From Candidatus Eiseniibacteriota bacterium (GTDB lineage Bacteria > Eisenbacteria > RBG-16-71-46), in assembly GCA_963717505.1 (NCBI GenBank), contig OY970342.1, positions 288,001 through 352,000 of the forward strand: a stretch of DNA of 64,000 bases, read 5' to 3'. The position numbers and the translations under genes were made by a program. Position 1 is the first letter of the stretch. Each line of letters starts with the position of its first letter. This document shows positions 2,026-17,604 of the stretch, piece by piece. The notes beneath the pieces were generated by a model. The model had not been told where the DNA came from, did no database searches, and was given only the letters and a program-made list of their open reading frames with translations.

Positions 2026-4829
2026 CTATCTCACGTAAAGCATCTTCCGCGTTGCGGAAAACGTCTCCAGCCCTTCAGCCGGTAGAAGTAGACCCCAGCT
2101 CCCGCGCCATCGCGCGTCCCTCCGAACGGCGCGCTGTGCTCCCCCGCCTCCTGCCATCCGTGGACCAGCGTCGCCACGCGCCGGCCACGCAGGTCGAAGA
2201 CTTCGAGGGTCACGTCCGACGCCACCGGCAGCGCGTAGCGGATCATCGTCCGGCCGCCGAAAGGATTCGGCGAGTTCTGGAAGAGCGCGAACGCCGACGG
2301 CTGGCCCGGCACGTTGGTGTTGTTGCTACCACGGCCGATCACGGTGACCTGCTGGGTCCCCAGGCCGGTCGCCACCACCGACAGCGTGGCCGTGTCGGGG
2401 CCGGCGGCGAGCGGGTGGTAGAAGACCGTTATCGTGTCGGCCTCGCCCGCAGGAATAGCCAACGCGGTGCGGCTGACCGAAAATTCGGTGTGGTTGCTGG
2501 TGATCGAGGTGATCGACAGCGTAGCCGTGCCTGGGTTCTCGAGGTGCAGGGTGTCGGCGAACGTGAGGCCGGGGATGACCACGCCCATATTGAGCGGGTT
2601 CGGGAACGCGGCGAAGGTCGGCGACAGGATCGTGAACGGGATGTCGCACACGTCGCTCGGGCTGCCGTCCCAGGCATCGCTGATCCGGAGTTCCGCTTCG
2701 TAGGTCGCGTCGCTGGGAATCGTCCAGTCGTAGCCACCGTGGTAACCGGGCACGTCGGCGACGAGTTGCCAGGGATCGGCCGCGCTCTTTCGATACTCGA
2801 TCCGGGCAATCGCGATGTTCTGGTGGCTCCAAACCACCGACCGCACCGACCCGGCAAGCCAGGACTCGCCGCCATTGGGCGAATTGACGTTCACGTACTG
2901 CGCCGAAACCGGCGTGTACGAATAGGTCGGCTTGAGCTTCCAGATTCCCGGTCCGGCTCCGGTTCCGACCAGGCTCTGGGTGGTCAGGATCAGCTCGCGA
3001 TCGCGCGCGTAGAGCCCGTAGTTGGAGCCCGAAACCGTCGAAGCGCCCTGCCAGGTCGAGCCCGCGTCGGTACTCAGGAAGAAGGTCTGGCCCGAGTACT
3101 GGCCGAACATGATCACGTTGGGATCGTCGCGCGCGATGTCGATCCCCCACGCCTGCGGCGAAGGCTGCACCTGCGTCCAGGTCGTGCCATGGTTGGTACT
3201 GCGCACCGTGCCGCCCCCGGCCCACTGCGTGCCGATGGCGACGCCCTTGTTCAGCCGACTGCAGGCCATTCCCGGCATCTCCGACGCGTCCTGCCCGCCC
3301 GGACCCGAGTACATGAGCTGGAACGTGAGCCCAGCGTTGGTCGACTTGTAGACCTGCGCCGGCGGATTGGTGCTGTTGGTGGTGCCGTCGCCGACCAGGA
3401 CGATCTCCGAGCTGTCGGGTACCACGATCAGGTCGCACGGACTGCGGAACGCGCTGTCGGTCGTCCACTCGGCCCAGGTAGACCCGAAGTTGGTCGATCG
3501 CCAGAGCGGCGCGTTGGCCGGTCCAAAGTAGAGTGTGTCGGGCCGGTCGGGGTGCATCTCGAGCGGGATGCCGTATTCGCCGTACGCCATGGTCAGCTGC
3601 GTCGACCAGGAGGCTCCGGCATTGGTCGAGCGCACGATCTGGCCATCGAGTCCGGCGACCGCGGCCACCCACAGGTTCGTATCCTTGGGCGACACCACGA
3701 ACGCATTGGCGCGGGAGGCACCCGGAACGGGTATTCCGACCGGAGACCACGTCTCGCCCTCGTCGAGGCTCTTGTAGGCCTGGGCGCCCAAGAGAGCGAA
3801 CAGCGTGCGCGGGTTCTGCGGATTGAGCGCGATGGTGCTGCCGCGAACCGTGGTCGCGAACGGGATCTCGAGCTTTTGCACGAAAGTGCGCGAGAAGGTC
3901 GCCAACATCGGCATGCCCCACAGGCTGCCGGCGTCCGCGGTGCGGAACACGACGCGATGGCGATCACTGCACAAGTAGAGTCGAGGGCCGAAGCCCGCGA
4001 GGGCACTCGGGCGCGCGAGCATCGTGTGCCGCTGGAACGTCCAGTTGGTGCCGCCGTTGACCGTTCGGCGCACGAACCCGCCGCCGCCCGCGACGTAGAC
4101 GTCGCTGGCCGAGACCACGCGCACGGCGCGCACGTCGGAACGCACGTCGAGCTTCAGGTTGACGTGCGACCAGTTGGCGCCGCCGTTGCTGCTCTTGAGG
4201 CAGGTGCCGAGGACGCCGCCGATCCAGATTTCGGTCCCCGCCTGGTCGATCGCGAGCAGATCGTTGGAGGTCGGGACCAGCGTCGGAGTCCAGTTGGCGC
4301 CGCCGTTGGTGGTGCGCAACACGGTGCCGCCGTCACCCACCGCCCAACCGTTCTGGGCGTCGGTGAAGCGCACGGCGCGCAGCGTGGTTGCGACCCCCGA
4401 GGTCTGTGCACTCCAGGTGACGCCGCCGTCGATCGACTTGCGAATCGTTCCGGAGGAACCCACGGCGTAGGCGGTCCCGAAGACCGGGATCGCGAGTGAT
4501 CGAAGGTCGGGGGCGCCGGCGAGATCCTGAGTCGACCAGGTGCCGCCGAAGTCGGTGGAGCGATAGACCCGCCCGCCGGCTCCGACCGCCAGGGCGACAA
4601 AGCCCGACGAAGCGATGCCGTAGAGCGGGAGTGGAGACGGCCCCGCGGTCAGACGCTGATAGCTGACCCCGGCGTCGGTGCTCAGGTAGATGGCGCTGCT
4701 GTCCCCCGCGGCCCAGACCGCCAGCCCGTCCGGGGTGAACACGGAGTGGAGGCCTTGGGCTGAGCCCAAGCTCGGTATGAGGGCGACTGCGAGGGAAACC
4801 AGGGCTGCGCGGGCGACGGTGCGGATCAT
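2026..4829 (-). CDS. Secreted Asp-box (BNR/Ycf48-like) beta-propeller protein with ASH/Ig-like domain and FlgD/T9SS-type C-terminal domain
   Basis: Signal peptide MIRTVARAALVSLAVALIPSLGSAQ, many S-x-D/N-x-G-x-T/S-W repeats, C-terminal QNSPNPF...VFDLRGRRV...GVYFYRL. Two extra bases in homopolymers (~2070 and ~2082) disturb the last codons; the corrected end is KAGDVSATRKMLYVR* with stop at 2026. Confidence 0.8.
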
Positions 4830-15072: not shown

Positions 15073-16086
15073 TCAGCTCAGGACGAATCTCCCCCGCGTC
15101 AGGTAGTTCATCGCCATCGTGGTGCCGTACGCGGTCAGCTCCACGAGATATTCGCCCTCCCGGGTGGTCGCGGCCTGGAGCCCGAGTTCCCGGCAGGTGC
15201 GGATGATGCGCTCGACCAGCGCGCGCACGACCGGGCGCTTGACCCCGGTCCAGTAGGTGATCTTGTCGGTCAGCGTCTCGCGGTGCGCCTGTAGAAGATC
15301 GGCCGCCGGGCGCACGTTCTTGCGCCGGCGTCCGGCCGGAATGAACAGATCGGCAAGGTCGCTTTCCAGCGCCACGTTCACGCCTGCCCCGTTCTGGCGA
15401 ATCAGCCGCCGGTAGAACTGCGCCACCGTGAGCTTCATGTCCTCGACCGTGATGTCGAAATCTCCAGTCGACACCGCCGGATCCTGATCGCGGACCGAAC
15501 GTACGACGCGGTCAACATACCGCAGCTTGATGAGCGCTGGCCAGAGCTTGTACTTGTGCCGCCAGTTGGAACGCGGCGTCAACCACACCGCAAACGTTTC
15601 GGCGAAGTCTTCGTCGGGGTGCTTCTGCGCGTACCAGCCCGCAATGTGCCGCACGTACTTGCGGCTGAACGGCACCGGACGGTAGTGGTCGCGATAGCGT
15701 CGGTTGTAGGGGCCGAACAGCTTGCGCCACTCGGGCGTCGCATACAGACGATACGCGTAGTTGAACGCGTGGCCGGCCTCGTGACGCAGGTACATCATGA
15801 TCTCCTGCGCGTCTTCGAGGTCGTTCATCTGGCGTTCGAGTCGGGCGAGCTTGGGATCGGCGAGATAGAACGGAATCCCGATTACCGGCTGTCCGTCGGG
15901 ACAGCCCCACTCGTCGGTCAAGTAGCACACCGGCCGAAATTTCTTGAGCCCCTTGCGCTCCAGCTCGCGATAGAGCTGATGGACGAAGTGCTCGACCGGC
16001 GAACCCTCGAGCCGCAGTCCGAGCTGGCTGATGCGCTTGCCGAGCAGCTCCTGAACGTCGGGCGGGGTTTTCTCGAAGTCGGTCAT
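15073..16086 (-). CDS. Putative zinc-binding metallopeptidase (zincin-like)
   Basis: LRHEAGHA (HExxH) and YAQKHPDEDFAETFAVWL. ATG at 16086. Confidence 0.8.
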   Translation of the reverse strand: MTDFEKTPPDVQELLGKRISQLGLRLEGSPVEHFVHQLYRELERKGLKKFRPVCYLTDEWGCPDGQPVIGIPFYLADPKLARLERQMNDLEDAQEIMMYLRHEAGHAFNYAYRLYATPEWRKLFGPYNRRYRDHYRPVPFSRKYVRHIAGWYAQKHPDEDFAETFAVWLTPRSNWRHKYKLWPALIKLRYVDRVVRSVRDQDPAVSTGDFDITVEDMKLTVAQFYRRLIRQNGAGVNVALESDLADLFIPAGRRRKNVRPAADLLQAHRETLTDKITYWTGVKRPVVRALVERIIRTCRELGLQAATTREGEYLVELTAYGTTMAMNYLTRGRFVLS

Positions 16087-16184
16087 GGTTCCGGATGAGG
16101 GTCGAGGGGCTGAGGCAGCCGCTGATGCTATCCGGCCCCTCGGGGGGCGACAAGCGCTGCGCGGTTCCGCTAGATTGGGCGGGA

Positions 16185-16889
16185 ATGTCGGCAAAGACGC
16201 GACCTCGCGAACCACGTCACTGGGTGTGGCGCATTTTGACGATGCTGGCTCTGCTCGCGGGGCTCTACGATCCGGCGTGGGCGCAGTCCGACCCGGCGCC
16301 GGCGCCGCCCAAGCTCGCACGGCCACGCTCGGTGGTCCCCACCTGAAGTGGTTGACCCGGCGAGGGGGCGCCGCTCCGGGGGAGCGGACTTCATACTCCG
16401 TGGACCATGTCGTTGCGCTGGGTGGACTTCGAGGTCGAGCGCGCGCGCTGGCGGGCGACTGCGGCTTATCGGATCCTGCACACCGTTCAGCTCGGCGTTG
16501 AGTACAATATCGCCGCCAACGAGTTGGCGCCGCTCGCGACCTGGTTCCTGATGACCGAGGACGATCGCCGGCCGGCGGTGTTCCTGGGGACCAGCTCCGA
16601 TCGGATCGGTTCGCCGGAAGGCACGCAGTCGTACTACCTGACCGCAGCCAAGGCGTTCCCGGTCGTGCGCACGGCGCCCTACGTGACCATCAACTACTCC
16701 GAATGGGATTCCGGATGGAACATCCCCTTCGGGGCCAACGTCGACCTAGGTGGCGGGTTCTCGGTGCTGCCGATGTACGATGGCGAGCGCGGGCATCTCA
16801 CCGGCAGCTGGTCGAACGACCGAATGAGCGTCACGGCGCTTTGGGTGTGGTTCGAACATTTCGGCGTGGCCGCGGCCGTGGGATTCTGA
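16185..16889 (+). CDS. Candidate double-selenocysteine (UxxU) exported beta-barrel-like protein with two in-frame TGA codons
   Basis: ORFs 16095..16346 and 16407..16889 share one frame. The only stops between them are TGA 16344-46 and TGA 16353-55 (VVPT-U-SG-U-PGEGAPLRGSGLHTPWTMSLRW). Signal peptide ends AWA|Q. The C-part has amphipathic beta strands and terminal Phe. Start could instead be 16224 or 16242. Confidence 0.7.
16358..16387 (+). promoter_or_regulatory. SECIS-like stem-loop(s) directly 3' of the in-frame TGA codons
   Basis: CCGCTCC-GGG-GGAGCGG is a perfect 7-bp stem (16371-16387). CGGCG-AGGGGG-CGCCG (16358-16373) is an overlapping alternative. Both have G-rich apical loops at bacterial-SECIS-like spacing. 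Confidence 0.6.
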
Positions 16890-16911
16890 ACTCTCGAAGG
16901 AGATCGATGTC

Positions 16912-17604
16912 ATGAGATTCGCGATGATCGCGTTGCTCCTGTGCCTGGGGGTGTCGACGGCGTCGGCCGGCGAGCCCGCGGCCGCGGCGAGCGACAAGGC
17001 CTCCAGCGATGCGCCGGCGCTGCAGACTGCGGTCTGCCCGGTGTGCCGGCTCAACGGCGAAACCGAGCCCGAAGCGGTGAAGGCGACGCGCATCTGGAAC
17101 GGAACCACCTACGGGTTCTGCTCCGACAAGTGCGCGCAGACCTTCGACGCCAATCCCGCCGCCTACGTGCTCGGCGAACTGCCGTACACCGCACCCGCGC
17201 TCGCGGCCAAGGGGCTGGACGGCAAGCCGGTCACCCTCGAGAAGCATGCCGGCCAGATCGTGCTGGTCGACTTCTGGGCGACCTGGTGTGCGCCCTGCAT
17301 CAAGACCATGCCCGAGCTGCAGAAGCTGCACGATCGCTACGCGTCGCAAGGTGTGGTGATCCTCGGACTGTCGGTCGACGAGGATCCCAAGAAGGTCACC
17401 AAGTTCCTCAAGGGCAAGAAACTCACCTACCCGATCGCCCTCGATGCCGGCGAAACGCCGGCGTTCCAGACCTGGGGTGTTCAGGCCGTCCCGGCCGCGT
17501 TCCTGGTCGACCGTAGCGGCAAGGTGGTGGCGCGCTGGCTGGGTCGCACGGACCCGCGCGCCGTCGAGGAGGAAATCGAACTCCTTTTGAAAGCCGGCTC
17601 CTGA
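16912..17604 (+). CDS. Exported TlpA-family thioredoxin-like protein with N-terminal YHS-like metal-binding domain
   Basis: Signal peptide, CPVC...YGFCSDKC..TFDANP (YHS), LVDFWATWCAPC, cis-Pro motif AVP. GAAGGAG RBS. Confidence 0.88.
   Translation: MRFAMIALLLCLGVSTASAGEPAAAASDKASSDAPALQTAVCPVCRLNGETEPEAVKATRIWNGTTYGFCSDKCAQTFDANPAAYVLGELPYTAPALAAKGLDGKPVTLEKHAGQIVLVDFWATWCAPCIKTMPELQKLHDRYASQGVVILGLSVDEDPKKVTKFLKGKKLTYPIALDAGETPAFQTWGVQAVPAAFLVDRSGKVVARWLGRTDPRAVEEEIELLLKAGS

Follow-up and report, generated by a model that had tools for sequence, protein, structure and literature searches.

The window examined here is a 64,000-nucleotide stretch (contig OY970342.1, positions 288,001 to 352,000; assembly GCA_963717505.1) from the genome of a Candidatus Eiseniibacteriota bacterium, which consists of a single contig of 4.16 Mb with 67.7% G+C. 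Judged from the sequence, positions 16185 to 16889 on the forward strand (234 codons plus a TGA stop) almost certainly form one genuine gene for a selenoprotein with two selenocysteine (Sec) residues, Sec54 and Sec57 in precursor numbering. Read with translation table 11, the same region is split into an open reading frame (ORF) of 83 amino acids and a second one of 160 amino acids, which starts at ATG 16407 and ends with Gly-Phe. The original prediction held that a signal-peptide ORF and the 160-amino-acid ORF share one frame, separated only by two TGA codons within T-U-S-G-U-P, and that the downstream part has a C-terminal Phe and no signal peptide of its own; inspection of the frame bore out both statements. 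Between ATG 16185 and the stop codon at 16887 to 16889, just two TGAs, at 16344 and 16353, interrupt the frame. ATG 16185 is the likely start of the gene, and ATG 16242 (Met20) is a less likely alternative.

The precursor begins with a signal peptide (residues 1 to 33, positions 16185 to 16283), in which a basic stretch is followed by ILTMLALLAGL and by a predicted cleavage site after AWA and before Q that was read by eye from the sequence. A Pro/Arg-rich linker connects it to T-U-S-G-U-P. The first Sec codon (UGA, 16344 to 16346) and the second (UGA, 16353 to 16355) are nine bases apart in the mRNA and lie in a flexible tail of about 40 residues that holds Pro-Thr-Sec-Ser-Gly-Sec-Pro-Gly-Glu-Gly. 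About 180 residues follow downstream of the motif up to the final Gly-Phe and a third TGA, the true stop codon (16887 to 16889), which has no hairpin behind it. A promoter and terminator scan found none, and an Rfam scan of positions 16000 to 17000 returned a sole row at chance level.

The two-Sec reading is supported by the conservation of both TGAs, which goes well beyond chance. A six-frame search of 61 related genomes located the gene in 17 of them, the window's own genome included. Eighteen of the 20 match rows were full length, each with exactly two in-frame TGAs, and the full-length matches in other genomes were 50 to 65% identical to the query; the remaining two rows were partial and came from one genome. 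A scan with one genome per species gave 141 relatives, and in the best 80 loci, which were kept, TGA occupied both sites in 81 of 81 copies. Some contigs were common to both searches, and 85 unique copies from about ten phyla remained after the removal of duplicates; both TGAs were retained in all 85, and Cys occurred at neither site in any of them. Homologs with TGA at both codons, to which the original prediction had looked for support, are thus the rule among the full-length relatives and in the larger set. The closest of the best 80 loci, with up to 66% identity, belong to Eisenbacteria/Eiseniibacteriota, and further loci are labeled Acidobacteriota (Thermoanaerobaculia), Poribacteria, Latescibacterota, Krumholzibacteriota, Gemmatimonadota, Calditrichia, or Bacteroidota, with a small number from other groups. 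Among the 18 relatives, L023 (genome G038) carries an unpublished flag; it contributes one row, and no claim depends on it.

The surroundings of the two codons are conserved as well. The motif P-T-U-[SAVT]-[GA]-U-P-G-E-G-A-P-L-R-G-S-G is nearly invariant. Starting 12 residues ahead of the first Sec, alignments A1 and A4 (53 of the 85 unique copies) are free of indels up to the C-terminus. The first Sec is located 181 residues from the protein end in 78 of 81 copies, the stop codon being TGA, TAG, or TAA. Of the 85 unique copies, 82 have an in-frame upstream start with a hydrophobic, signal-peptide-type stretch, so that the conservation upstream of Met 16407 that the original prediction had made a point of is found. 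The ATG of the 160-amino-acid ORF occurs in just 3 of the 85, and only 18 have an ATG at all in the 45 codons that follow the second TGA. Without read-through, the barrel domain described below would lack both an export signal and a conserved start.

An alternative explanation is that the region does not encode one protein, either because a short secreted peptide ORF ending at 16346 adjoins a separate 160-amino-acid gene or because a gene was broken by a mutation or an assembly error. Gene callers do annotate the region as split, and public reads gave only thin contig fragments over the window. However, the same two TGAs, three codons apart, recur in every copy from independent assemblies, invariant residues flank them on either side, the downstream part has no conserved start or signal peptide of its own, and the Cys forms described below read straight through the motif. 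Tested against these findings, the alternative failed, and we consider it very improbable. With respect to public sequencing runs, no RNA run was listed with the gene, and the best DNA run contained a fraction of 0.29 of the sampled words. Contigs from four public runs over the locus were short and of low depth, with one 56-base piece covering the region of the TGAs and the hairpin with 3 differences. A depth spike of public contigs was observed at 17234 to 17341, over the active-site region of the downstream thioredoxin gene; these contigs continue into unrelated sequence, and the spike therefore reflects cross-organism conservation of the WCxPC region and not abundance of this genome.

Two observations concern individual relatives. 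Genome G047 contains two tandem copies of the barrel gene (L034:1501-2079 and 2689-3267, minus strand) with two TGAs each; one copy ends with GF and the other with GW. In genome G040 (L040, L041; contig C144:27588-28069), a partial, divergent barrel match with 37 to 42% identity is located about 7 kb from an intact UxxU copy; one of its pieces contains an in-frame TAG and the other lacks stops, and it may represent a decayed or motif-less paralog.

Relatives with Cys complete the picture. A profile search of 1.84 billion cluster representatives (E up to 0.001) gave 220 matches, most of which start just past the second TGA and are hence truncated gene calls. The 160-amino-acid product of the window is itself in the collection; the representative of its cluster is named "hypothetical protein" and a near relative "Uncharacterized protein." The expectation that gene callers would split the gene was therefore correct, as the databases hold only the truncated product. 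Motif-spanning proteins with PT-C-AG-C-AGEAR were found in P0013, P0016, P0034, P0033, and P0065. Three longer proteins (P0018, P0037, and P0152) have PT-C-AG-C at the same columns and N-terminal YHS domains fused before the motif and the barrel, and the motif is absent in the more distant barrels P0025, P0009, P0107, P0124, P0133, and P0141. The Cys-type proteins P0033, P0018, and P0037 carry a His-rich loop insertion (alignment A3, columns 287 to 312), which the Sec-type proteins lack. At the Sec positions, P0011 reads C...W and P0106 reads W...W, probably because their gene callers used a code with TGA as Trp; P0011 may be a mixed CxxU form called under another code.

A quick maximum-likelihood tree with a midpoint root was calculated from 65 rows (53 Sec-type, 6 Cys-type, and 6 motif-less), leaving out P0065, P0152, P0011, P0106, and the loci L122 to L128. 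The Sec forms lie on one side of a branch with a support of 95, the Cys forms likewise with 99, and both groups fall together (support 89) with the motif-less forms outside. Homologs with Cys at both codons, envisaged in the original prediction, accordingly constitute the sister group. Such a pairing of Sec and Cys sister groups is the usual mark of a true selenoprotein, and a single origin of the UxxU form would agree with the topology.

The weakest alternative, in which the organism would decode TGA as one of the standard amino acids (Trp or Gly), could draw on the P0106 database entry with W at both Sec sites, but this W most likely reflects the code chosen by its gene caller, and the idea failed against the use of TGA as a stop and the complete Sec machinery, which leaves it practically no probability. 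TGA closes 2050 of the 3243 open frames that are 400 codons or longer and is the commonest ordinary stop in the genome; it also ends the barrel gene itself, right after the conserved C-terminal Gly-Phe. The genes selA, selB, selC, and selD, whose presence had been singled out as a check on the prediction, were all four found, with scores over the curated cut-offs: selA with 565.9 bits, selB with 345.5 bits, the tRNA-Sec with 67.1 bits (ARAGORN anticodon tca), and selD with 346.7 bits. There is one in-frame TGA inside selD, which is thus present in its selenoprotein form. This selD gene (L018:1501-2424, L001:1501-1598; G000 contig C1, about 3.02 Mb, outside the window) is located about 170 bases upstream of the tRNA-Sec gene, and about 700 bases further on lies a match of GTPase type, which scores 63.8 bits with the selB model. 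Since selA was found in 58 of the 61 related genomes, its presence does not discriminate the carriers of the barrel gene. It was not found in G009 (94% complete), one of the 17 genomes with the barrel gene.

The G-loop hairpin that the original prediction placed after the TGAs corresponds to CCGCUCC-GGG-GGAGCGG at positions 16371 to 16387 of the forward strand, a candidate selenocysteine insertion sequence (SECIS) with a 7-bp stem (16371 to 16377 with 16381 to 16387) and a GGG loop (16378 to 16380). The loop starts 31 nucleotides (nt) after the first UGA and 22 nt after the second. The published bacterial SECIS consensus comprises a loop of 3 to 9 nt, a stem of 4 to 16 bp, a G in the first two loop positions, a UGA-to-loop distance of 16 to 37 nt, and a minimum free energy of -7.5 kcal/mol or lower (PMC13188914), and the hairpin of the window (-11.5 kcal/mol) agrees with it in every one of these points; a value of -7.5 kcal/mol or lower was obtained for 83 of the 85 copies. 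Because both distances are within the range, one SECIS can serve both UGAs.

Between the second TGA and codon +13, a stretch that includes the hairpin, synonymous sites hardly vary. In an alignment of 18 sequences, 98.4% of the cells were paired, compared with 31 to 71% when the 3' partners were slid by 1 to 3 columns, and one compensatory pair was present. Among the 85 unique sequences, each of the seven stem pairs is at least 98% paired, and covariation was found at pairs 39-45 (C-G in 67, U-A in 17, and U-G in 1) and 36-48 (G-C in 70, G-U in 13, A-U in 1, and broken in 1), the changes in the former affecting synonymous third positions of Leu and Gly codons. The loop is GGG in 71 copies and GUG in 14. 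Several caveats apply: covariation is limited to these two stem pairs, the hairpin also codes for the invariant A-P-L-R-G-S-G so that constraints on RNA and protein can be separated only in part, the complete 86-nt region shows no folding advantage over shuffled sequences (z = +1.0), and RNAalifold favors another structure, in which the UGA region pairs with downstream bases. The RNAalifold structure shows no covariation and was set aside; the 7-bp hairpin is preferred because of its compensatory changes and its fit to the published model.

The region behind the hairpin was predicted as a 12-stranded transmembrane beta-barrel domain ending with Gly-Phe (16401 to 16886, forward strand; mature residues 40 to 201), for which AlphaFold2 gave predicted local distance difference test (pLDDT) values of 84 to 90. 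The entire model, based on alignment A1, has a pLDDT of 79.5, a predicted template modeling score of 0.76, and 12 to 13 strands. The pLDDT is about 50 for the mature residues 1 to 39, which include the motif; the latter is located about 16 residues before the first strand. Searches with Foldseek and independently of it had top matches that were all 12-stranded outer-membrane barrels, i.e., FapF (Z 16.3), KdgM (Z 16.0), the COG4313 channel (Z 15.6), the NalP translocator (Z 15.4), NanC (Z 13.7), and a designed 12-strand barrel (Z 13.2). Of the 81 copies, 78 terminate with F or W, as judged by eye. On the strength of the model, the window protein is very likely an outer-membrane barrel, in agreement with the outer-membrane protein of about 234 residues that had been proposed for the locus.

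FapF, the KdgM/NanC porins, the COG4313 channel, and the autotransporter translocators share this fold (Z 13.7 to 16.3, root mean square deviation [rmsd] 2.5 to 2.9, 151 to 170 residues). FapF and the autotransporters moreover resemble the window protein in having an N-terminal segment, which in their case is associated with the pore. Sequence identity between the 12-strand barrels and the window protein is only 5 to 12%, however, without any family match, and to our knowledge these barrels include no selenoprotein and none with a CxxC-type tail motif. PcoB (PDB 7pge) is a weaker structural match than the other 12-strand barrels (Z 8.9, rmsd 4.3, 152 residues). The PcoB/CopB copper channel likewise is a small outer-membrane barrel after a disordered N-terminal region with metal-ligand residues, and this region is reported to be required for copper efflux. 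In contrast to the window family with its one invariant U-x-x-U, the ligands of PcoB are His/Met-rich and poorly conserved, its operon partner is a multicopper oxidase instead of a YHS-thioredoxin, and a sequence relationship is not apparent (no Pfam match, E up to 0.1).

On the same strand, 22 nt after the stop codon of the barrel gene and with GGAG before its ATG, follows a gene (16912 to 17604) for a secreted protein in which a YHS domain is joined to a thioredoxin fold of the TlpA/ResA type (WCAPC). Its Pfam scores for Redoxin (87.5 bits), AhpC-TSA (86.1 bits), and Thioredoxin_8 (57.3 bits) are over the cut-offs, and the match to YHS (PF04945) is marginal with 31.3 bits versus a cut-off of 30.3. 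As the equivalog cut-offs are not reached for ResA (100.7 versus 170 bits) and TlpA (69 versus 230 bits), the thioredoxin assignment holds at the family level only. Among 96 loci, which include some duplicates and some that are cut at contig ends, the partner gene is directly downstream in 76, and it is a constant neighbor in most phyla. The three other neighbors in the window recur in 1 of the 96 loci each. The CxxC of YHS and WCxPC are kept in 67 of 67 full-length partners, and C42, C45, C70, and C74 occur without exception in a set of 40 partners. When every flanking ORF was clustered, no further neighbor proved common beyond single lineages, although spurious high-GC ORFs polluted the clusters.

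The Cys-type loci show a different arrangement of the same modules. In four of five long metagenome loci, a small Cys-rich ORF is followed by a YHS-YHS-CxxC-barrel fusion of about 415 amino acids, whose YHS domains score 43.5 to 54.8 bits, and by a stand-alone thioredoxin of 160 amino acids (WCxxC). The occurrence of YHS, the (U/C)xx(U/C) barrel, and thioredoxin together in alternative fusions indicates that they work together as one system, and the barrel and the YHS-thioredoxin would probably form a functional unit. The small secreted ORF just upstream of the YHS-barrel fusion (L126:3887-4336, L122:4158-4625, L128:4027-4428) is rich in Cys-Cys pairs and in CxxxC, belongs to no Pfam family, and could be a further metal-binding component. 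One Cys-type locus adjoins a two-component system. In the window, the divergent upstream gene at 15073 to 16086 (minus strand) matches Peptidase_Mx, a putative zinc metallopeptidase, with 35.1 bits and is a neighbor in 1 of the 96 loci.

The family, its architecture, and the system are new in that they are uncatalogued in the sources searched, while the coding mechanism is standard. In NCBIfam release 20.0, the read-through protein had no family match at E up to 0.1, 10 relatives had none either, and the only Pfam row for the window protein, DUF1459, is at chance level (13.3 bits versus a cut-off of 23, E up to 0.1). Eight relatives without YHS had no Pfam match, and the profiles of KdgM/NanC, FapF, and CopB/PcoB were unmatched. 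These results agree with the earlier statement that the protein was not recognized among the classic prokaryotic selenoprotein families. In the ESM Atlas, the 160-amino-acid form falls into a cluster of 1,183 members without a common Pfam family, and its automatic names (DUF3570, TonB-like, and BcsS/YjbH) were rejected as mere leads, none being confirmed by Pfam. No description of the family was found in full-text literature, a coverage that leaves out subscription journals and supplementary tables with possible candidate lists.

Two Sec residues in CxxC spacing are also present in the eukaryotic SelL. A catalogue from 2026 lists 119 prokaryotic selenoprotein families, and no small UxxU barrel is among them (PMC13188914, Table 1). 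Its UxxU members are a Prx-like thiol:disulfide oxidoreductase, the MerA-like NF041115, annotated as metal-binding, and the FmdB-family TIGR02605 alone (PMC13188914, Table 1). These three share the spacing of the window protein but have soluble folds (thioredoxin-like, small metal-binding, or zinc-ribbon-like), and there is no membrane barrel among them. The outer-membrane members of the catalogue comprise only the FCYXU-type TonB-dependent receptor (NF049945) and the GSU2204/MtrB-PioB-like barrel (NF041027) (PMC13188914, Table 1). Both differ from the window protein as large barrels of other families with a single Sec. The window protein has no NCBIfam match to any of these.

Taken together, the locus is probably best explained by an outer-membrane barrel with two Sec residues, a YHS-thioredoxin partner, and a putative metal/redox site. 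C-terminal Gly-Phe is a signature that fits outer-membrane insertion, and in outer-membrane barrels with an even number of strands both termini point into the periplasm. The Sec translocon would export the protein, which would then insert into the outer membrane, and the tail with its two selenols would consequently be periplasmic, within reach of the secreted YHS-thioredoxin. At neutral pH, selenols are ionized; their affinity for soft metals is very high, and they oxidize readily to a diselenide. The two selenols may hence form a soft-metal binding site or a diselenide switch. The partner would keep this site reduced, hand over a metal ion, or take one, with the YHS domain as a metal donor or acceptor and the thioredoxin maintaining the reduced state, while the barrel would provide the passage across the outer membrane. 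In the TlpA-ScoI relay, a periplasmic thioredoxin-fold protein serves the Cys-motif metal site of its partner. The partner of the window can be likened to the TlpA-ScoI/CoxB relays and the Scs thioredoxins in this respect, but it contains a YHS domain in addition, and the client presumed for it is an outer-membrane protein that bears Sec. The Scs thioredoxins, which act in copper tolerance, are reported to tie copper to redox homeostasis.

A selenolate metal site tethered to a channel would be the reading that fits the most facts, with PcoB and its N-terminal metal-binding region as the working analogy. Among the related matches, YHS and TRASH are described by Pfam as metal-binding domains, and an iron-uptake cluster of Campylobacter is reported to combine a YHS and CxxC membrane protein with periplasmic thioredoxins, which offers a second analogy. 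The His-rich loop insertion in some Cys-type members was counted as a further metal lead. Metal handling rather than pure redox chemistry may come close to being the probable function, and copper specifically would be a doubtful candidate.

Several findings sit less well with this model. The low pLDDT of the tail (about 50) means that its placement may be the periplasm, the barrel lumen, or the cell surface. Twenty loci, mostly from Poribacteria, have no partner match, and the Poribacteria copy examined consists of the barrel gene alone, without the partner. No metal-resistance or metal-uptake gene was detected as a conserved neighbor in the 96 loci or in the clusters of flanking ORFs. The redox potential of a diselenide is moreover much below that of a disulfide, and a TlpA-type thioredoxin may reduce it poorly, which would favor a metal-bound or permanently reduced site or another role of the partner.

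A purely redox function of the UxxU site is somewhat unlikely but the more serious of two functional alternatives. The motif would then be a selenol/diselenide relay that the TlpA-like partner supplies with electrons; the relay would reduce an oxidant or a substrate at the outer membrane or protect the envelope, without any metal transport. Most catalogued UxxC, CxxU, and UxxU selenoproteins are thought to be redox proteins (PMC13188914), the partner has a thioredoxin fold with WCxPC, and the conserved neighbors include no metal genes. However, a pure redox relay leaves unexplained why the YHS domain invariably accompanies the system, fused to either the thioredoxin or the barrel. The His-rich loop insertions also speak against it, and a channel-type 12-strand barrel would be an odd scaffold if it were a mere anchor. 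A redox-operated plug, whose diselenide state makes the tail enter or leave the barrel lumen and thereby opens or closes the channel until the partner resets it, appears decidedly unlikely. Among the best structural matches, FapF and the autotransporter translocators do hold an N-terminal segment in the pore, with alignments that reach residues 12 to 24 of the model, i.e., the tail, and the short distance of about 16 residues between the motif and the first strand would suit a plug, but at a pLDDT of about 50 the modeled placement of the tail means little.

Under the preferred reading of a selenolate site tethered to a channel, the family would be an undescribed and widespread one of obligate two-Sec outer-membrane channels, the first small porin-like barrel known to have a diselenide/selenolate center, with one SECIS for two UGAs, a dedicated YHS-thioredoxin, and a new selenium-dependent route by which a soft metal (or reducing power) would cross the outer membrane in many uncultured phyla; as a whole, this proposal is tentative. 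The prokaryotic selenoproteins known so far are for the most part soluble redox enzymes that contain a single Sec, and close relatives with Cys exist for most of them. In the present family, none of the 85 unique copies has lost either Sec, so that within the Sec group selenium is apparently not replaceable by sulfur, and the family is a good case for studying what Sec does that Cys cannot. One hairpin for two UGAs nine bases apart offers a compact natural system for the reach of a SECIS element. The mis-annotation of the family is systematic, and a family model would correct many genomes. The outer-membrane, channel-type site together with the YHS-thioredoxin points to an undescribed metal/redox system of the envelope, which would span Eisenbacteria, Poribacteria, Latescibacterota, Gemmatimonadota, Acidobacteriota, and others.

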